Source: a virus (taxonomy: Duplodnaviria > Heunggongvirae > Uroviricota > Caudoviricetes). From it: DNA of 32,996 nucleotides. The notes under the pieces are model-generated. The model was not told the origin of the DNA and searched no databases. It saw only the letters and a program-made list of their open reading frames with translations. Where the stretch lies: positions 1 to 32,996 of the IMG/VR virus record IMGVR_UViG_2778261300_000002. One strand, written 5' to 3'. Made by a program: the position numbers and the translations under genes. Below, piece by piece: positions 10,711-27,436 of the stretch (positions within the stretch are counted from its first letter, which is position 1; every line of letters begins with the position of its first letter).

Positions 10711-11121
10711 ATGGCTCAGGTTGCCATTTTTAAAGAAATATTTGATCAAGTGCGGAAAGATTTAAACTGTGACCGATTTTACTCTGAACTAAAACGTCAC
10801 AATGTCTCACATTACATTTACTATTTAGCCACAGGTAATATTCACGTTGTATTGAAAAATGATAACACAGTGTTAATAAAAGGACTTGAGGAGGTTGTGA
10901 ATGTTAAATTTCGCAGAGACACGCGACTTATAGAAACTTACTCTCATAAGTTGAAATCAAGAGAAATCACATTTCATGAATACAGGGAAAATCTGGCTAA
11001 GGCTGGAGTTTTCCGATGGGTTACAAATGTCCATGAACACAAAAGGTATTACTATACCTTTGACAACTCATTATTGTTTACCGAAAGCATTCAGAACACG
11101 ACACAATTTTTTCCACGCTAA
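10711..11121 (+). CDS. DUF1398-family protein (YdfO/YbcV-like)
   Basis: 136 aa, [45 protein letters not shown]...[38 protein letters not shown]; same position and strand relation as ybcV next to bor in DLP12-type prophages. Confidence 0.75.
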
Positions 11122-18490: not shown

Positions 18491-18518
18491 AAAAAGAGGC
18501 CTAACGGCCTCTTTATTT
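18491..18518. terminator. Bidirectional rho-independent terminator between convergent genes
   Basis: AAAAA-GAGGCC-TAAC-GGCCTC-TTTATTT; serves the plus-strand membrane protein gene and the minus-strand S8 protease gene. Confidence 0.7.
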
Positions 18519-20772
18519 AGCGTATCTGGATTCTTTCCTCATTACTTACTATTATATCATCACTTTCCCAACCTAATAAATCAAGTTCAGAAACGGCTTC
18601 AGAATAAATATCTTTATCCGCAGATAACGAACGTAAAGTAATCAGCAATACAGCCCGCTGTGGAAACTCAAGTTTATCTTGCTCTGCTCTACGTTGCACA
18701 TCTATTTTTAGTCTCCACGTATTCCCTTGTGTGCCTTGAGGGTACTTTTTCCTATACACTTTTATTGGTGACCATTTAAAACCATTCTCTATGAGATACT
18801 TCTCATATAATTCACTTTTATCCTTTACTTGAGGCACCTTGCTTATGTGTTTTCTTTTTTTTGTTTTATCAAAGTCGTATGTTCCAAAAGAAACATCTAC
18901 ATTAGATCGGCAATATTCTGAAGGGTAGTTCGGATCTAATGGCGGAGAGTAAACAAGAGTCATTAATATCTCTCCTGTAAATTTTCCCTCATCATTTTTT
19001 AAAGAATTAGGGATTACAAATGGATAGCGACCAAACTCTTCACCTTCAAGAGTATTAACTTCAAAAAGAAATGTTATTTCATTTTTCTTACAAGATAACA
19101 TATCTGAAATATTATCTTTTGGAATACCAAAACCATGATAATTTATTTCTTTTGGATCAATTTGATCCGTTCGCTCTAACATCGCTGAATGAATGATTAA
19201 TGCTTTCACTCTTTCCGGTGATGGTGAAATATTGCTATTTAATTGCAGCTCATGCCATGTTGCAGCTGCAATACTTGAGATTAGTGGAGTGGAGAGGCTT
19301 GTACCAACAGATTCCGATAAGTGACCATTATCTCCAATAGCAAATATTCCTAAATCAGAAAAATCAAGATTTGCCCTGCAGTTCCCACCAAAATGAGTAA
19401 CTTCAGGTTTTGGAATACAGGAAGGCCCGGGGCCTCTTCTGGAAAAGGATGATGGTTGGTTTGCTTTTACAATGGAGTCGGCACAATCTACATGTGCAAC
19501 AGATCCCACCGTCAAAGCTCGCACAGAATCCCCCGGAGCGGAAATACGATCACAATCTGATAGCTCCTGAGGCGGCCAAGTGCGTTGCGGTAAAGATTCG
19601 TAATTACCAGATGCAACAACAAAAAGGCATCCATGTTCATCATGCAAATAACTCAACAAATGACCAAGTTCGGAAAAATTATCACTATGGCAGGCTTCTT
19701 TCTGTCCGAGAGATAGATTCCATATTTTTACTTCAGGGAAATCCTCAACAGCTGTTGTAATTATATTCGCAAGTTCTGGTAGTGATAGTTCTGTATCCGC
19801 AGGAAACGCTGCAATATCAACCACCTCCGCATGTGTATTAGGAAACCCTTCGTAGTTTCTATTTAACCCTTTACTATCAATGATTAAACTTGCCACCATA
19901 TTGCCGTGAGTATAATCGGCCTTCCTTCCATTAAGAAAGCTCCTTCTTCCCCATACCCATGGAGAGATATCCCTATTGTTTGGGTCAATACCACTATCTA
20001 TTATCCCTACTAATGGATAATGTGCATCTACATCAGGAATCGGTAATAATGCCTTTTTTTCGGCTGCTGTTTTTGATATTATTGCTTCACTATTATCCAG
20101 CTTAAAAGTGGGCATTGGCTGTAACTTCCTAACACCAATGAAATTTGATAATTCATAAATGTTGTTATTTTCAGGAACTTCAAAATAAAAAATATCATTT
20201 CCAATCGTGTGTTTATTTGGCTCAGGAATATTTAACTCAGCCATCATTAATTTCAATGACTCTTCAAGGGATTTATTTTTCTTCCTATTCCTGTGATCAA
20301 ATAATTTCAAGATATATGTTTTGGCCCCCTCATCTGCTATTCTGTCACAAATGAAGGGTTCGATTTTATCAATAACAGCAATATGGAGCGTACCATTTTT
20401 GGTTTTCGTGCTATTTTGTATTTTAGATTCAAGCCTAGAAAGGCCCTCTTCGGTTACACTTACTAATAATTCACCCAAATTACAACTACCAATTACGGGA
20501 CAGGTTTTGTCTCCAAGCAAACTAGTAGGACGATGTGATTTCGCTAAAGCTTTATCATGCAGAGTAACTTTTGCTACCGCAGGCACTCCCGGCCACTTTC
20601 GGAATGAGTCTCTAAAGTGTTCGGACACACATCTAACTTCATTTTTGAGCCTAGATAATAACTCTTTTGTTACTGGGCGAATGGGTTCCTTTTCAGTAAA
20701 ACCGTAGGTTTTGTCATTAAAATCTTTTGCAAATGTCTTAATGATTTTTATGGGCCTTTCAACTTTGCTCAT
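18517..20772 (-). CDS. S8 subtilase-family serine protease (IetS-like)
   Basis: 751 aa; catalytic triad motifs VGIIDSGID (Asp), HGNMVAS (His), GTSLSTP (Ser); about 240-aa N-terminal and 200-aa C-terminal extensions; AT-rich. Confidence 0.8.
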   Translation of the reverse strand: MSKVERPIKIIKTFAKDFNDKTYGFTEKEPIRPVTKELLSRLKNEVRCVSEHFRDSFRKWPGVPAVAKVTLHDKALAKSHRPTSLLGDKTCPVIGSCNLGELLVSVTEEGLSRLESKIQNSTKTKNGTLHIAVIDKIEPFICDRIADEGAKTYILKLFDHRNRKKNKSLEESLKLMMAELNIPEPNKHTIGNDIFYFEVPENNNIYELSNFIGVRKLQPMPTFKLDNSEAIISKTAAEKKALLPIPDVDAHYPLVGIIDSGIDPNNRDISPWVWGRRSFLNGRKADYTHGNMVASLIIDSKGLNRNYEGFPNTHAEVVDIAAFPADTELSLPELANIITTAVEDFPEVKIWNLSLGQKEACHSDNFSELGHLLSYLHDEHGCLFVVASGNYESLPQRTWPPQELSDCDRISAPGDSVRALTVGSVAHVDCADSIVKANQPSSFSRRGPGPSCIPKPEVTHFGGNCRANLDFSDLGIFAIGDNGHLSESVGTSLSTPLISSIAAATWHELQLNSNISPSPERVKALIIHSAMLERTDQIDPKEINYHGFGIPKDNISDMLSCKKNEITFLFEVNTLEGEEFGRYPFVIPNSLKNDEGKFTGEILMTLVYSPPLDPNYPSEYCRSNVDVSFGTYDFDKTKKRKHISKVPQVKDKSELYEKYLIENGFKWSPIKVYRKKYPQGTQGNTWRLKIDVQRRAEQDKLEFPQRAVLLITLRSLSADKDIYSEAVSELDLLGWESDDIIVSNEERIQIR

Positions 20773-20809: not shown

Positions 20810-21979
20810 CTAACCCACCTTTGTAGTATCTTGCCTTCTTGAGGATTTACTCTTAGACGTTAACCTAGATACCTTATTTGCTGAAATTGAAAGTAAACTA
20901 GCAATTTTTCTTACTGTAAATACTCTCTCATCACAATTTCTAATTAATTTTGCTAATTTTTCTATTATTTGTTCTGGTTGATCAAACTTCTCTCCTTTAG
21001 ATTCCCAAATAGACATCATAAGAAAAGTTGTATCAAATTTACCATTATTAAATAAAATAGAATGGCGAAGCGCACGCTCGCATATTTGTTCAATAAACGC
21101 ACATGACAAGTCTTTTGAGAGAACAGCGGAGTCATATGCAACATCTAATGTTGGAAAATGCTGATTCAATAATCTTTCATATAGACGTTCTCTCACTTTT
21201 AAATCAGGTAAACCAATTTCGAGTCTGTATGAAAATCTACGCCAAACCGCATTATCTAGTAAATTCTCGTGATTGCTGGCAGATATAAGTACAGTATGTT
21301 CAGGAAGATCATCAATGTTTTGTAACAATGCAACAACAACTCTTTTTAATTCACCCAATTCATGTTGATCATCTCTGGCTTTTGCCAAAGCATCAAGTTC
21401 GTCCAGAAATAGAACGCAAGGTTGATTGCTTGCATACTCAAAAAGAGTGCGTATATTTTTAGCTGTTGAACCTAAATATGACGATACCAACGCATCACAC
21501 CGCGCAGTGAAAAGAGGTAATCTCAACTCAGATGCAATATGCTTAGCTGCAAGAGTTTTGCCACAACCTGGAGGACCAAAAAGTATCATTGAGGATGCAG
21601 CTTTTAATCCATATTTCTTCAGTTCATCTCTTCGTATTACTGATGTAATAAATTCATTAATTTTTTCATTAATCGAGTTATTCAAAATAGGTGGAGCTAC
21701 GTTGATCTCAGGCTCTGTTTTATCTGCCAGATGAAATTTTGTTTCATTATCAGTAGGAACTGAATATGCCTTTGTGGAGAGGCTATTTTGAGTAAAGTTT
21801 GCTTTCTGAAGCGAGAATGTAGTTTCCTGCTTCAAGAAGCTTCGTATTGTTTTCGCGAGTTCGCGCTCACCTTCCGCATCCATCTCTCTTGCAACTTTTG
21901 CTGCAATTCTCTGGAAGGTTATTTTATCGCCTATGACCCCTGACTTTATGAGGTCTACCAATAACTCGCCGTTGTTCAT
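20810..21979 (-). CDS. AAA+ ATPase (IetA-like)
   Basis: Walker A GPPGCGKT, Walker B VLFLDELD, arginine-finger region NAVWRRF. Start set at the ATG giving MNNGELLVDL...; the ORF-track start at 22030 is a TTG. Immediately upstream of the S8 protease gene. Confidence 0.8.
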   Translation of the reverse strand: MNNGELLVDLIKSGVIGDKITFQRIAAKVAREMDAEGERELAKTIRSFLKQETTFSLQKANFTQNSLSTKAYSVPTDNETKFHLADKTEPEINVAPPILNNSINEKINEFITSVIRRDELKKYGLKAASSMILFGPPGCGKTLAAKHIASELRLPLFTARCDALVSSYLGSTAKNIRTLFEYASNQPCVLFLDELDALAKARDDQHELGELKRVVVALLQNIDDLPEHTVLISASNHENLLDNAVWRRFSYRLEIGLPDLKVRERLYERLLNQHFPTLDVAYDSAVLSKDLSCAFIEQICERALRHSILFNNGKFDTTFLMMSIWESKGEKFDQPEQIIEKLAKLIRNCDERVFTVRKIASLLSISANKVSRLTSKSKSSRRQDTTKVG

Positions 21980-23241: not shown

Positions 23242-24030
23242 TTACCCCCTGAAGCCTGGCGGGATCGCACTGTCCGGCAACGAGACGGTGTTAACCTGTC
23301 GGAGCAACGTCTCAGGCCGAACACCTTTCGGCGCGAACAGGCCCTGGTATTCATTGGCGATGCTGTGTCGAATCACCTGCTCAGGTGTAAAACCCTGCTG
23401 ACGGAATTTTTCCAGTTCCCGTATCGCCCCGTTAGCGCCCTGCTCCGTTCGAATCGGTTTTCGCAATGCCTGTCTGAACCGGACCCACTCATGCCAGAGT
23501 GTTTCCGGCAACCAATCGGGCAGCTCAATAGTCTCCGGCTCGAATTTTTTAGACGCTCGTTTTTGGCGAGGGGGATTTAGGGGGAGATCAGTATTTAGAT
23601 CTTCCTCTTCCTTTTCCTCTGGTAACGCTTTTTGATCCGTTTGTGTAACGCTGGCAGCGTTACCTTGTCGTTTCAGTTCGCGTATTTTGGTTACTCGCTC
23701 GTTTGTAACCGCCCGTTTTTTAGAGCTTTTTCCGTTATGACGTTCAAAGTTAGGTAGAGAAAGCCCACCGTCATTTTCGACCAGCCATCCAACCTGAATT
23801 AACGCATCAGCAAAACCAGACATAAAAGTGATGCGATCTATTGCACTTTTTGTAACGCCGCGAGCGTTACAATCTGCATTACCGTCTATCATTTGTTGAT
23901 CCGCCCATGCCCAGAAGCGAATAACCTTCCCTAATGCGGCATCTGGATCAATATTCAGAATCTCAGCAAGCCTGAATATTTCCGGCTTATCCGGCGTAAT
24001 AACCTCGAGCTTTATCCAGTTTGAAGCCAT
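23242..24030 (-). CDS. Replication initiation protein (O-like / Rac YdaU-like)
   Basis: 262 aa immediately upstream of the DnaC-like gene (6-nt gap); acidic central linker; position equivalent to lambda O. Confidence 0.6.
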   Translation of the reverse strand: MASNWIKLEVITPDKPEIFRLAEILNIDPDAALGKVIRFWAWADQQMIDGNADCNARGVTKSAIDRITFMSGFADALIQVGWLVENDGGLSLPNFERHNGKSSKKRAVTNERVTKIRELKRQGNAASVTQTDQKALPEEKEEEDLNTDLPLNPPRQKRASKKFEPETIELPDWLPETLWHEWVRFRQALRKPIRTEQGANGAIRELEKFRQQGFTPEQVIRHSIANEYQGLFAPKGVRPETLLRQVNTVSLPDSAIPPGFRG

Positions 24031-24107
24031 TTGTTTTCACCTTGTAACGCTCGCAGCGTTACATTTAACTGATACCGAACAAAACAATCCGGCACGATTA
24101 ATTTCAA

Positions 24108-24530
24108 TCAATGCACTACGACAGAATCGCCAGGCGACCCGCCGCCGCTGAAATGCGCTTTACGGTAAACGGCCTGGACTGCATCATCATGCGCATCAAT
24201 TGCTGTACTCAATGCTTCCTGCGCGGCCAGTAATGCACGGCGTTCCAGGGTATCGAAGATGCTGAGTCGGTGGCGCAGCTCGCGCGGAAGGATTGCCAGA
24301 ATTGCAGGGACCAGTTTCTGAATTTTTTCCCTTTGCGCTTCCGTTTCACCTTTTAACCAACGGTGATAGATGTTCTGCTGATTATTCCAGTCCTTGCCTG
24401 GTACCAGGGGCAATTCGCAGCCTCCCAGGCGCAGATATTCTTCAGTAATGGCACTGGCAACCCATGCCTGCCCTTTTTCAGATGCCAGGGCTAACAACAC
24501 TGATTCGATGTGCTCATGCCTGATTTTCAT
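24108..24530 (-). CDS. YdaT-like protein (proposed CII-like regulator of Rac-type prophages)
   Basis: 140 aa, MKIRHEHIESVLLALASEKGQ..., C-terminus ...GGGSPGDSVVVH; follows the Cro-like gene with a 4-nt overlap. Confidence 0.6.
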   Translation of the reverse strand: MKIRHEHIESVLLALASEKGQAWVASAITEEYLRLGGCELPLVPGKDWNNQQNIYHRWLKGETEAQREKIQKLVPAILAILPRELRHRLSIFDTLERRALLAAQEALSTAIDAHDDAVQAVYRKAHFSGGGSPGDSVVVH

Positions 24531-24769
24531 GAATCAACCGCTCCTATGCTGTTTTCGCTATGCTTACCGTCTGGGGGGAATACATCGTCAAGTCCACAAT
24601 GAGCGCCAAGCCGATTAAGGGTTGAAACAATTCTTCTGCACTCCTCTAGCCCAGGGGTACGAAAATTTGCTTCGTAATTTGCCAGTCGGCTTTGTATCCA
24701 CCCTAACTGAACAGCGAGTTGTCTTTGAGACAGCCCAAGCTGTTTTCGATATGTTGAAATTTTGTTCAT
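24527..24769 (-). CDS. Cro-like HTH regulator (YdaS-like)
   Basis: 80 aa with HTH ...QLGLSQRQLAVQLGWIQSRLANYE...; divergent from the repressor gene. Confidence 0.7.
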   Translation of the reverse strand: MNKISTYRKQLGLSQRQLAVQLGWIQSRLANYEANFRTPGLEECRRIVSTLNRLGAHCGLDDVFPPDGKHSENSIGAVDS

Positions 24770-24865
24770 TGAAAACCTCCGATGACAATTTTAAACACAT
24801 CTTGTGTTATATGGTCAAGCTGTTTTGTGTTTTGCGTAAATCACGATTCGTGATACAAGAATGCA
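24770..24865. promoter_or_regulatory. Immunity-region divergent promoter/operator region
   Basis: Contains palindromes AACACA-TCT-TGTGTT (24794..24808) and ATCACGA-T-TCGTGAT (24840..24854) between divergent repressor and cro-like genes. Confidence 0.55.
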
Positions 24866-25285
24866 ATGGAGAAAGAAAACGAAAAAATTGCCGCTAGTAG
24901 GCTCAATGACAAAATTGCAATGCGTCTTAAAGAGCGCAGGCAGAAGCTTGGTTTATCTCAAGGAAAACTTGCTGAAATCTGCGGATGGACGCAATCGCGC
25001 ATAGGTAACTATGAGGCGGGCAGCAGAAATGTTGGAGTGCATGACGCTGTCGTATTGGGAAAGGCACTTGGCATATCTCCTCCTGAGCTCCTCTTTGGAG
25101 AACAGGAATCTTCTGAATTGTGGTTAAATGAATCCCAACGAAAACTTCTTGAGTTGTTTAACCAGCTACCGGGCTCAGAACAACAACGAATGATTGAGCT
25201 ATTTGAGGTCCGGCTAAAAGAAATCGATGAGTATGTAGAAAAATATTTGAGAGGCAGACTTAAAGATAATCCCCCACCGGAGTAA
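24866..25285 (+). CDS. CI-like prophage repressor (RacR-like, XRE-family HTH)
   Basis: 139 aa with HTH ...KLGLSQGKLAEICGWTQSRIGNYEAG...; divergent to the cro-like gene. Confidence 0.7.
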   Translation: MEKENEKIAASRLNDKIAMRLKERRQKLGLSQGKLAEICGWTQSRIGNYEAGSRNVGVHDAVVLGKALGISPPELLFGEQESSELWLNESQRKLLELFNQLPGSEQQRMIELFEVRLKEIDEYVEKYLRGRLKDNPPPE

Positions 25286-25315
25286 TGATCTTGCTATCAC
25301 AGTAATATGCCAATC

Positions 25316-25339
25316 AGCCCGCTATCAGCGGGCTTTTTT
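25316..25339 (+). terminator. Rho-independent terminator after the repressor gene
   Basis: Perfect hairpin AGCCCGCT-ATC-AGCGGGCT followed by TTTTT. Confidence 0.7.
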
Positions 25340-25367
25340 GTACCATCATCATATTACACCACCACAA

Positions 25368-25409
25368 AACACACATCGTGTTGACACATGAGAACACATT
25401 GTGTTTAAT
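25368..25409 (+). promoter_or_regulatory. Near-consensus sigma70 promoter overlapped by two operator-like palindromes
   Basis: -35 TTGACA (25381..25386), 17-nt spacer, -10 TTTAAT (25404..25409); palindromes AACAC-N5-GTGTT (25368..25382) and AACACA-T-TGTGTT (25393..25405) share the half-site seen at 24794..24808. Confidence 0.5.
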
Positions 25410-25589
25410 AAGCATATCCAAACAACGCCCCACCAGAGAACGGCAGGACAATACCTCGAGTTATCCAGCCACTGAACAGGGCTAAGTAGCCAGCCTGAGG
25501 CATACGAACATGACGGCAGTTGTTGATTGATACAAAGCGCAGTAGATAAAACGTTCCGCCACCCGGCGTTAAGGGGAAATGAGGTCAAC

Positions 25590-25745
25590 ATGGATACTAT
25601 CGATCTTGGTAACAACGAATCTCTGGTATGTGGCGTGTTCCCCAACCAGGATGGAACATTCACCGCCATGACATATACCAAAAGCAAAACGTTTAAAACC
25701 GAAGGTGGCGCGCGTCGCTGGTTGGTCAAAACATTAACGGAGTGA
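25590..25745 (+). CDS. Small protein in the repressor-proximal slot (YdaF/YdaG-like candidate)
   Basis: 51 aa from the ATG at 25590 (MDTIDLGNNESLVCGVFPNQDGTFTAMTYTKSKTF...), AGGGGAAATGAGG Shine-Dalgarno; the ORF-track start at 25527 is upstream of the RBS. Confidence 0.55.
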   Translation: MDTIDLGNNESLVCGVFPNQDGTFTAMTYTKSKTFKTEGGARRWLVKTLTE

Positions 25746-25746
25746 C

Positions 25747-25989
25747 TTATTCGAAGCGCTTAGTGCAAGGGTTCCATGTTTCAAGTATTAGTTCCTCATA
25801 GTCGGAATCGAGTTGAAAATGGGAGTTAGTGCCTAATGAGCACTTTCTAACAAAACGAATTATTCCCGTTCTAACAAGCAAGGCTGTACTTTGATTTTCA
25901 GGACAAAGCGCAAGTAGGTCATTGAACTGGAGGAATGATTCAATAATACGAATTTGTTCTACATTTAGCGAATTCAGATTTTTTAGCAT
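25747..25989 (-). CDS. Hypothetical protein (80 aa), AT-rich
   Basis: ORF only; convergent with the YdaF-like gene; no family recognised. Confidence 0.35.
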   Translation of the reverse strand: MLKNLNSLNVEQIRIIESFLQFNDLLALCPENQSTALLVRTGIIRFVRKCSLGTNSHFQLDSDYEELILETWNPCTKRFE

Positions 25990-26032
25990 TTTGCGCTTTT
26001 TTACGAAATCCCGAATCAGCTAGAACAGGCTC

Positions 26033-26263
26033 ATGAAAAGGATAACAACTCTATCAAAGATTAAAGTAGAGACAAAAGCCATGCTAAAGCAGAATAGTTG
26101 CATGGAATATGGAATGGCACTTTTCTTTTCCAGGTACTCTGACAAGTTTTCTGGTACCAACATTAATATCAGAAAAAATATAACTATAGTAATCATAAAC
26201 CGACTAACTGATTTTTCGGCAAGAATTTTGCCAATGTTAAAAGACTTTCTAACATTTCAATAA
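26033..26263 (+). CDS. Hypothetical protein (76 aa), AT-rich
   Basis: ORF only; no family recognised. Confidence 0.3.
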   Translation: MKRITTLSKIKVETKAMLKQNSCMEYGMALFFSRYSDKFSGTNINIRKNITIVIINRLTDFSARILPMLKDFLTFQ

Positions 26264-26473
26264 CTCTCAACTGTAAGGGTATTGAAATGTTAACACAAGC
26301 TCTCGCTGTAGGGGTATAGCAGAGACCACCGAAGCCCGGAGGTGGTGAAATAAAACCGGGCACAACACGAAGGCGCATTTCCGATATCCATAAAGAGTCG
26401 GTCTTGTCTGTTAAATTTAAATGGTGGGAGTGCGCCTCCGGTTGTGAATAACAACACTGCTGTGTGTAGTCTT

Positions 26474-26520
26474 GGCGGCATCAGTTTTTTCTTGAAGTTC
26501 GACTGATGTCCGCCCTTTTT
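26474..26520 (+). terminator. Terminator-like hairpin with U-run in a structured non-coding region
   Basis: GGCGGCATCAG...CTGATGTCCGCC inverted repeat (one bulge) followed by CTTTTTAAAG. Confidence 0.4.
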
Positions 26521-26695
26521 AAAGTGAATTTTGTGATGCGGTGAATGCGGCTAAGCGCACGCGGCACAGTTAAAAGTCATGTTAGTCCTTATTGGTTTGG
26601 GTGGGAAAGCCGACTGTAATTGTTAACTGGTTGCAGTCACCTGGAGGCACCAGGCACCGCATCAACAAAGTTCATTTGTAAAAATGGAGATAATT

Positions 26696-26917
26696 ATGAT
26701 TGCACATCACTTCGGAACTGATGAAATACCACGTCAGTGTGTGACTCCTGGTGATTATGTTCTTCATGAAGGCCGGACATATATCGCCTCGGCAAACAAT
26801 ATTAAAAAGCGAAAACTTTATATTCGTAACCTGACTACAAAAACATGCATTTCTGACTGCATGATTAAAGTCTTCCTCGGTCGTGATGGTTTACCTGTAA
26901 AGGCGGAGTCATGGTGA
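26696..26917 (+). CDS. kilR: KilR cell-division inhibitor
   Basis: 73 aa from the internal Met, [49 protein letters not shown]...[14 protein letters not shown], matching Rac KilR as remembered. Confidence 0.8.
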
Positions 26918-27087
26918 TGACTAAGAAAATAAAATGTGCTTACCACCTTTGCAATAAAGGAATTGAAGAAAGCAAAAGCATTAAAAGACCACTTCATTTC
27001 ATGCGTGGAGTTATCCCAACGACGGAAATGAAAAAATATTGTAGTGAAAATTGTGCCGAAAAAGACCAGATGGCACACGAACTTTAA
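26917..27087 (+). CDS. ydaE: YdaE-like small zinc-binding protein
   Basis: 56 aa (below the ORF-track cutoff), [56 protein letters not shown]; start overlaps the kilR stop (TGATG). Confidence 0.7.
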   Translation: MTKKIKCAYHLCNKGIEESKSIKRPLHFMRGVIPTTEMKKYCSENCAEKDQMAHEL

Positions 27088-27160
27088 TTAACTGACTATG
27101 CGAAACTGAATTTATGCCAGCAATGGCAGGGATTCGCTCAACCTTAATTAAGGAGAAAAA

Positions 27161-27436
27161 ATGATTACCAATTATGAAGTCACTGTTGTAACTACCGATG
27201 ACATTGTTCACGAGGTTAATCTGGAAGGAAAGCGTATTGGCTACGTGATTAAAACAGAAAATAAAGAAACCCCATTCACTGTGGTTGATATTGACGGCCC
27301 ATCAGGCAACGTAAAAACACTTGATGAAGGTGTCACAAAAATGAGTCTGGTTCACATCGGAAAGAATCTGCCCGCAGAAAAAAAAGCCGGATTTCTGGCA
27401 ACTCTGATTGCAATGAAATTAAAAGGTGAAATCTGA
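27161..27436 (+). CDS. racC: RacC-like protein
   Basis: 91 aa, MITNYEVTVVTTDDIVHEVNLEGKRIGYVIKTENKETPFTVVDIDGPSGNVKTLDEG...; AAGGAG Shine-Dalgarno; between ydaE and recE as in Rac. Confidence 0.7.
   Translation: MITNYEVTVVTTDDIVHEVNLEGKRIGYVIKTENKETPFTVVDIDGPSGNVKTLDEGVTKMSLVHIGKNLPAEKKAGFLATLIAMKLKGEI

Follow-up and report, generated by a model that had tools for sequence, protein, structure and literature searches.

The described systems closest to the locus reported here are the immunity regions of the E. coli prophages Rac, Qin and CP-933P. The published operator of the K-12 Rac repressor RacR is (T/A)TAGGC-N3-GCCTA(T/A) (PMC9638921). A fall in racR raises ydaF and ydaG expression about 40-fold and that of ydaC, kilR and ralA by more than 70-fold (PMC6765115), and CRISPRi of racR derepresses ydaG, kilR, recE, recT, xisR and intR (bioRxiv 10.64898/2026.09.06.749655). 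In Qin, DicA represses the dicBF operon and its transcript, the first gene of which is ydfA (PMC10448788). The PL933P promoter of CP-933P has the same hexamers as the PR of that prophage, carries three operators (OL1-3), and PaaR2 and YdaS repress it about 100-fold (PMC8630535). Leaderless repressor mRNAs have been documented for paaR2 (PMC8630535) as well as for racR (PMC9638921).

We analysed a region of this kind within a stretch of viral DNA of 32,996 nucleotides, called the window below. A 2-kb query around the region is 100% identical to a prophage of E. coli ZYB62 that adjoins ttcA, the Rac attachment locus, and the window is a Rac-type lambdoid prophage of E. coli at ttcA. According to the ZYB62 annotation, and in the orientation of the window, the leftward genes are ydaV, a ydaU-like gene, ydaT and a cro-like gene, and the rightward genes are the repressor gene, a DUF1391 gene, kilR, ydaE, a gene in the racC position, recE, recT, ralR, xisR and intR. 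One strand carries in succession the repressor gene, a terminator, a promoter, the DUF1391 gene, kilR, ydaE, recE, recT, xisR and intR. Since this promoter (25381-25409) faces DUF1391, a DicF-like RNA, kilR, ydaE, recE, recT, xis and int, in other words the early-left operon, we hold with high confidence that it is the PL/OL equivalent and that the region comprises the whole immunity switch of a lambdoid prophage of the Rac/Qin/CP-933P type. The immunity region was matched with at least 80% coverage in 153 of 5426 complete E. coli genomes. The prophage also contains an anti-phage defence pair, IetS (S8 peptidase, 18517-20772, minus strand) and IetA (AAA ATPase, 20810-21979, minus strand), flanked by the replication genes on one side and a Hok-like gene on the other (PADLOC E-values 1e-270 and 2e-131).

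Two divergent genes encode the regulators of the switch:
24866-25285, plus strand: immunity repressor gene, 139 aa, DicA family, Pfam HTH_3.
24527-24769, minus strand: gene of a cro-like HTH regulator, 80 aa, in the YdaS/DicC position and divergent from the repressor gene, Pfam HTH_3 with an E-value of 2e-9.

The repressor is 30% identical to DicA and both have the C-terminal motif LLELFNxLPxSEQ in common. No S24 peptidase domain was detected in the repressor with Pfam, and with its N-terminal HTH_3 and a short helical C-terminal domain bearing this motif the protein would, as judged from its sequence, belong to the non-cleavable repressors of the DicA family. A PDB sequence search with the repressor returned only generic HTH matches, for example 434 repressor and C.AhdI. 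The HTH of the repressor is 45% identical to that of the cro-like protein over 42 residues, and the recognition-helix regions are near-identical (GWIQSRLANYEA in the cro-like protein, GWTQSRIGNYEA in the repressor), suggesting that the two proteins likely bind the same sites. We also noticed a 30-nt inverted repeat with 80% complementarity (24712-24741 and 24945-24974) in the HTH-coding parts of the two divergent genes, which look like diverged copies of one HTH module.

The original prediction had described the palindrome AACACA-TCT-TGTGTT between the divergent repressor and cro-like genes. It is indeed found there, at 24794-24808, within the 96-bp gap that separates the start of the cro-like gene (24769, minus strand) from that of the repressor gene (24866). 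Two further sites, a half-site operator and a related palindrome (OR2 and OR3 below), had been overlooked. The gap contains the following elements:
24794-24808: OR1, AACACA-TCT-TGTGTT (AACACATCTTGTGTT), a perfect 6-3-6 palindrome over the spacer and -10 of PR.
24817-24831: OR2, AAGCTG-TTT-TGTGTT, a half-site operator sharing 2 nt with the PR -35 and adjoining the -35 of the putative PRM.
24840-24854: OR3, ATCACG-ATT-CGTGAT (ATCACGATTCGTGAT), a related perfect palindrome over the putative PRM.
24790-24818, minus strand: PR-like promoter read from the sequence, TTGACC (24818-24813), a 17-nt spacer and TTTAAA (24795-24790).
24831-24866, plus strand: putative PRM inferred from the sequence, with a weak -35 TTTGCG and an extended -10 TGaTACAAG (24851-24859).

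The centres of the three OR sites (24801, 24824 and 24847) succeed each other in steps of 23 bp, and OR3 has the CAC-N5-GTG core of the other sites. PR is followed by a GGAGG Shine-Dalgarno sequence and the ATG of the cro-like gene. The centre of OR2 lies 42 nt upstream of the repressor ATG. The putative PRM, whose spacing is kept in relatives, is probably leaderless, with a start predicted at the A of this ATG (24866). At the junction of the cro-like gene and ydaT, CTGATTTTCATGAATCAA (24520-24537) differs by one mismatch from the YdaT operator TTGATT-N6-AATCAA (PMC9986795). This junction is the position of OM in CP-933P (PMC9986795); the window-wide count of sites resembling the YdaT operator is not above chance.

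Downstream of the repressor gene the same half-sites had been reported to recur at 25368-25382 and 25393-25405 over TTGACA-17-TTTAAT, and both their coordinates and their overlap with the -35 and -10 are correct. The elements found there are:
25316-25340, plus strand: intrinsic terminator behind the repressor gene, made up of a stem of 8 bp (6 G-C pairs) and a T-run.
25368-25382: OL2, AACACA-CAT-CGTGTT (AACACACATCGTGTT, one mismatch), which overlaps the PL -35 by 2 nt.
25391-25405: OL1, AGAACA-CAT-TGTGTT, in the 15-bp register of OR1, over the spacer and -10 of PL.
25393-25405: a 13-bp perfect palindrome, AACACATTGTGTT, within OL1.
25381-25409, plus strand: PL-like promoter, TTGACA (25381-25386), 17 nt and TTTAAT (25404-25409).

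This is a sigma-70 promoter whose -35 and -10 are both overlapped by operators that carry OR half-sites. The repressor gene separates it from OR, and it reads away from the immunity region into recombination, excision and integration genes. Without gaps, 26 of the 42 positions agree between PL (25368-25409) and PR (24831-24790, minus strand); TTGAC and TGTGTTTAA coincide and the operators stand at identical offsets, with OL2 and OR2 ending 2 nt into the -35 and OL1 and OR1 ending 2 nt into the -10. The centres of the two OL sites, 25375 and 25398, are again 23 bp apart. No third OL site is recognisable 23 bp upstream or downstream of OL2 and OL1, so that OL consists of OL2 and a half-conserved OL1, whereas lambda and CP-933P have three OL operators; three are not required in Rac-type elements, as K-12 Rac shows two as well. 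The TTTAAT of PL has a T in place of the usual A at -11, which is why it was missed by an initial consensus scan and why the strength of PL is not readable from its 11/12 consensus match. The TTTAAA of PR, too, is without the A at -11. A second match to the PL core (28 of 42 positions at 10839-10880, plus strand, containing AACACAGTGTT) was discarded as probably due to chance because it lies in coding (ORF 10711-11121), AT-rich DNA.

Short motifs of this kind could also be fortuitous, with palindromes and promoter-like hexamers arising by chance, or the promoter could be a decayed remnant in a cryptic prophage. PL is the only match to the sigma-70 consensus of at least 11/12 in the window, where 0.69 are expected, so a single match is not rare in itself, and the AACACA hexamer alone is not enriched (18 copies in the 33-kb window against 21 expected). 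The inverted pair, in contrast, has 2 exact matches in the window against 0.00 expected, and allowing at most one mismatch to the AACACA-N3-TGTGTT 15-mer gives 2 matches against 0.13 expected, both in the two regulatory regions. The identical register at two promoters, the selection on the half-sites described next and the recurrence of the layout in four other immunity types all speak against an accident, and in view of these comparative data we give next to no credence to it.

Conservation was assessed in 80 IMG/VR loci that encode the repressor, 64 of them at 98-100% identity and 16 at 84%, which gave 36 distinct OR sequences and 52 distinct OL sequences. Among the 36 OR sequences only 1 of the 30 columns within half-sites (those of OR1 and OR3 plus the right-hand one of OR2) is variable, as compared with 35 of the 66 other intergenic columns (Fisher p 7.6e-7). 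For OR1 this corresponds to 1/12 half-site columns and 3/3 central columns, for OR3 to 0/12 and 2/3, and in OR2 the right half TGTGTT is invariant and the left half variable. OL2 shows the same behaviour across the 52 distinct OL sequences (2/12 half-site and 3/3 central columns vary), and the -10 TTTAAT of PL is invariant in 52/52 variants and the -35 TTGAC present in nearly all. The half-sites are thus under purifying selection, with central triplets and inter-site DNA free to vary. The terminator of the repressor gene is also kept in relatives; in the 84%-identity group its place is taken by a different hairpin.

OL1 departs from this pattern: among the 52 variants its right half, (T/C)GTGTT, is conserved and all 6/6 left-half columns vary. 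The site predicted at 25393-25405 is therefore present, yet the perfect palindrome is specific to this window and one IMG/VR locus and only its right half is conserved in relatives. We rejected the 13-bp palindrome as a functional unit for its unconserved left half and since the 15-bp register matches that of PR. Both OL1 and OR2 are best regarded as weak sites, each beside a strong one, and given its unconserved left half OL may hold one strong and one weak site, not two equal ones.

Such an arrangement of one strong and one weak site could fit a reading in which OL is mainly an anchor for OL-OR looping over about 570 bp that tunes PRM and PR, with repression of PL secondary or PL itself weak. 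Lambda CI and PaaR2 form octamers and lambda CI loops OL to OR (PMC8630535 and references in it), and the PL -10 without an A at -11 would agree with a weak promoter. The sites nevertheless lie exactly on the -35 and -10, TTTAAT is invariant and TTGAC near-invariant across the 52 variants, and the orthologous operons are strongly derepressed in K-12. Moreover, looping and repression are compatible with one another. We consider it very improbable that looping is the main function of OL.

A comparison of immunity types also supports the PL/OL reading. In K-12 Rac, in two heteroimmune E. coli prophages (L005 and L006), in the 84%-identity group and in Qin, the OR and OL operators change together with the immunity type and the flanking modules are unchanged. 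K-12 Rac has four copies of the RacR operator between racR and ydaS and two downstream of racR that flank TTGACA-17-TATAGT (6 matches in 7 kb against 1.7 expected); the two downstream copies were read from the sequence here and we found no description of them in the literature searched. In Qin, DicA-type sites lie over TTGACC-17-TAATCT upstream of ydfA (PMC10448788). In L005 and L006, OR as well as OL have CTCACR-N3-YGTGAG in place of AACACA-N3-TGTGTT. The leader downstream of the PL -10 is nearly identical across immunity types; in L005 and L006 the identity resumes exactly at the PL -10/+1, and this near-identity places a mosaic junction at that point. Such co-variation is the classic mark of an immunity module that can be exchanged and has OL and OR as its borders. 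As the operators of PL are those of the immunity switch, this promoter is very probably under the direct control of the immunity regulators, just as the original prediction had proposed, with register, conservation and co-variation with immunity type as the evidence.

L005 and L006 are also informative on the two regulators. Compared with window positions 24527-24865, their corresponding segments (2053-2395 in L005 and 2089-2395 in L006) encode a cro-like protein that is 96-99% identical, whereas the repressors are only 60-61% identical. Their OR3 (TTCACACATCGTGAT, TCACR-N3-CGTGAT) resembles that of the window. Because a 99%-identical cro-like protein stands beside different operators in these prophages, the assignment of sites to the cro-like protein is uncertain. 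One tentative and rather doubtful possibility may be that the CAC-N5-GTG core is read by the cro-like protein and that the outer bases (AA..TT in the window, CT..AG in L005 and L006) set the specificity of the repressor. If this were correct, heteroimmune prophages would share one anti-repressor-state regulator acting on each other's PL and PR.

Downstream of PL we find:
25410-25589, plus strand: early-left leader of about 175 nt, with a transcript start predicted near 25416.
25590-25745, plus strand: DUF1391 gene, 51 aa, YdaF/YdfA orthologue, Pfam DUF1391 with an E-value of 5e-28, the first gene of the PL operon.
25747-26196, minus strand: divergent sieB homologue, antisense to the PL operon, PHROG 6399.
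26461-26515, plus strand: DicF-like RNA, 42.8 bits (under the gathering score of 48), with its own hairpin and T-run.
26517-26703, plus strand: STnc100-like stretch directly upstream of kilR (26696-26917).

The leader has a homologue in K-12 Rac, where the alignment from the repressor stop to the first gene has a mean column identity of 77%. Its conservation (25412-25589) extends across the heteroimmune prophages L005 and L006 and also to L002. Folding of 185 nt of leader gave a structure no more stable than that of shuffled sequences (z = +0.95); a structured leader or nut-like element was dropped after this result, and no boxA-like sequence was seen by eye. An Rfam search of 24000-27200 gave no match in the leader or the switch; its only matches were the sub-threshold DicF, the STnc100-like region downstream and two weak ones at chance level in the repressor/terminator region and in ydaT. 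A simple scan detected no plus-strand terminator from the promoter to kilR. From about 26248 to 26700 the DNA is 97.6% identical to K-12 Rac, in which the kilS sRNA is annotated upstream of kilR. In some prophages that share this immunity region, a gene for a Rha-family regulator takes the place of the sieB/kilR segment downstream of DUF1391 in the PL operon (L007 2887-3653 and L008 3363-3652).

The DUF1391 protein is 86% identical to YdfA and 84% to YdaF. It has no PADLOC match, its only Pfam match is DUF1391 and its PHROGs families are of unknown function, so that none of the three resources relates it to exclusion or defence proteins. Functional data on DUF1391, YdaF or YdfA were not found in the literature searched; the "ydfA" of PMC12111858 is a plasmid gene in a different context and is not informative on YdfA. 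A single-sequence AlphaFold model of the protein had a pLDDT of 62.6, which is too poor for a fold search.

The original prediction had taken this gene for a lysogeny-slot gene, expressed in the lysogen under immunity control like rexAB or sieB. On the strand of the repressor gene it is the next gene downstream and, being without known function, could conceivably have a protective role. RexAB is expressed because its genes are co-transcribed with cI, and lambda sieB has a promoter of its own that the repressor does not shut. Neither situation is found here. The terminator at 25316-25340 separates the DUF1391 gene from the repressor gene, and both core elements of PL, -35 and -10, are overlapped by operators in the geometry seen at PR, so that the repressor should shut the gene off. 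The gene heads the early-left operon of kilR, recET, xis and int, and its orthologues behave accordingly: K-12 ydaF is derepressed about 40-fold on RacR depletion (PMC6765115) and ydfA is repressed by DicA (PMC10448788). The true sieB homologue is another gene, located downstream of DUF1391 and on the opposite strand; it has 25% identity to K-12 SieB across 160 aa, is split by an in-frame TAG at 26020-26022 and has no RefSeq annotation in the identical genome. With the missing PADLOC match added to these observations, a lysogeny-slot role for DUF1391 is highly unlikely. Most likely it is a gene silenced in the lysogen rather than an exclusion gene.

The anatomy of the switch, the register, the conservation and the co-variation with immunity type are shown by the data above, and the pairing of proteins with sites, the direction of regulation and promoter strength are inferred. 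We propose that the DicA-family repressor would bind 15-bp 6-3-6 operators of the form A-A/T-C-A-C-R-N3-Y-G-T-G-A/T-T. OR1 and OR2 would cover the -10 and -35 of PR, which serves the cro-like gene, ydaT and the replication genes; OR2 would stand 42 nt before the start of PRM, which is probably leaderless, and OR3 would cover PRM. OL2 and OL1 would cover the -35 and -10 of PL in the register seen at OR, and since operators on both core elements in PR geometry imply repression of PL, the repressor would shut both PR and PL in the lysogen. Upon loss of the repressor PL would fire into the leader, DUF1391, the DicF-like RNA, kilR, ydaE, recE, recT, xis and int. The cro-like protein, probably bound to the same sites, would later turn down PL, PR and PRM.

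For an immunity type carried by about 3% of complete E. coli genomes, strains of O157, O145, O103 and O111 among them, our work provides an operator consensus and a PR/PRM/PL map. The expectation for DUF1391 is also corrected: rather than a lysogenic-conversion gene it would be an early gene, silent in the lysogen. The map could help to predict cross-immunity among Rac-type prophages and guide the design of reporter and induction experiments; beyond annotation it is of little importance.

The locus appears to be an ordinary OL/PL of the known Rac/Qin/CP-933P kind, of which only the operator specificity appears undescribed, no description of it having been found in the literature searched. It is similar to dicA-dicC and dicBp of Qin in having a DicA-family repressor without a cleavage domain, a divergent Cro-like gene and a repressor-controlled PL-like promoter just downstream of the repressor gene, followed by DUF1391 as first gene (YdfA in Qin), DicF RNA and a cell-division inhibitor (PMC10448788). 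Unlike in Qin, whose repressor DicA is only 30% identical, the operators are AACACA-N3-TGTGTT and not of the TTGTTAGTCATAACTAACAA type, the leader measures about 175 nt instead of about 70 nt and the inhibitor is KilR and not DicB. With the racR-ydaS/ydaG-ydaF region of K-12 Rac the locus shares the integration site at ttcA, the modules ydaT, ydaU, ydaV, kilR and recET, the homologous leader, 6-3-6 operators and a PL-like promoter, there TTGACA-17-TATAGT, flanked by two repressor operators. K-12 Rac differs in that RacR is mostly unrelated to the repressor (14% alignment identity), the operators are TAGGC-N3-GCCTA, ydaG lies between promoter and ydaF, and sieB is intact. CP-933P of O157:H7 resembles the locus in its CI-like PaaR2 with a leaderless gene, its Cro-like YdaS and CII-like YdaT, and a PL that equals PR in -35 and -10, carries OL operators and is repressed by both regulators (PMC8630535); the near-match to the YdaT operator at the cro-like/ydaT junction adds to this resemblance (PMC9986795). 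Its operators, however, are 18-bp repeats with the consensus GTTTAGTAA, a toxin-antitoxin pair follows paaR2, and PL933P has been described upstream of the paaR2 locus with downstream genes that have no assigned function. In contrast to lambda, the window lacks an S24 autocleavage domain, an N gene and a nut site, and rexAB is absent from the interval separating the repressor gene from PL; only two OL sites are recognisable, and the operators measure 15 bp against 17 bp. The overall plan is nevertheless that of lambda: two operator clusters with common half-sites, sites overlapping the -35 and -10 of both early promoters, an inter-operator spacing of about 23-24 bp, an OR2 near -42 of a leaderless PRM and a PL that drives recombination, excision and integration genes.
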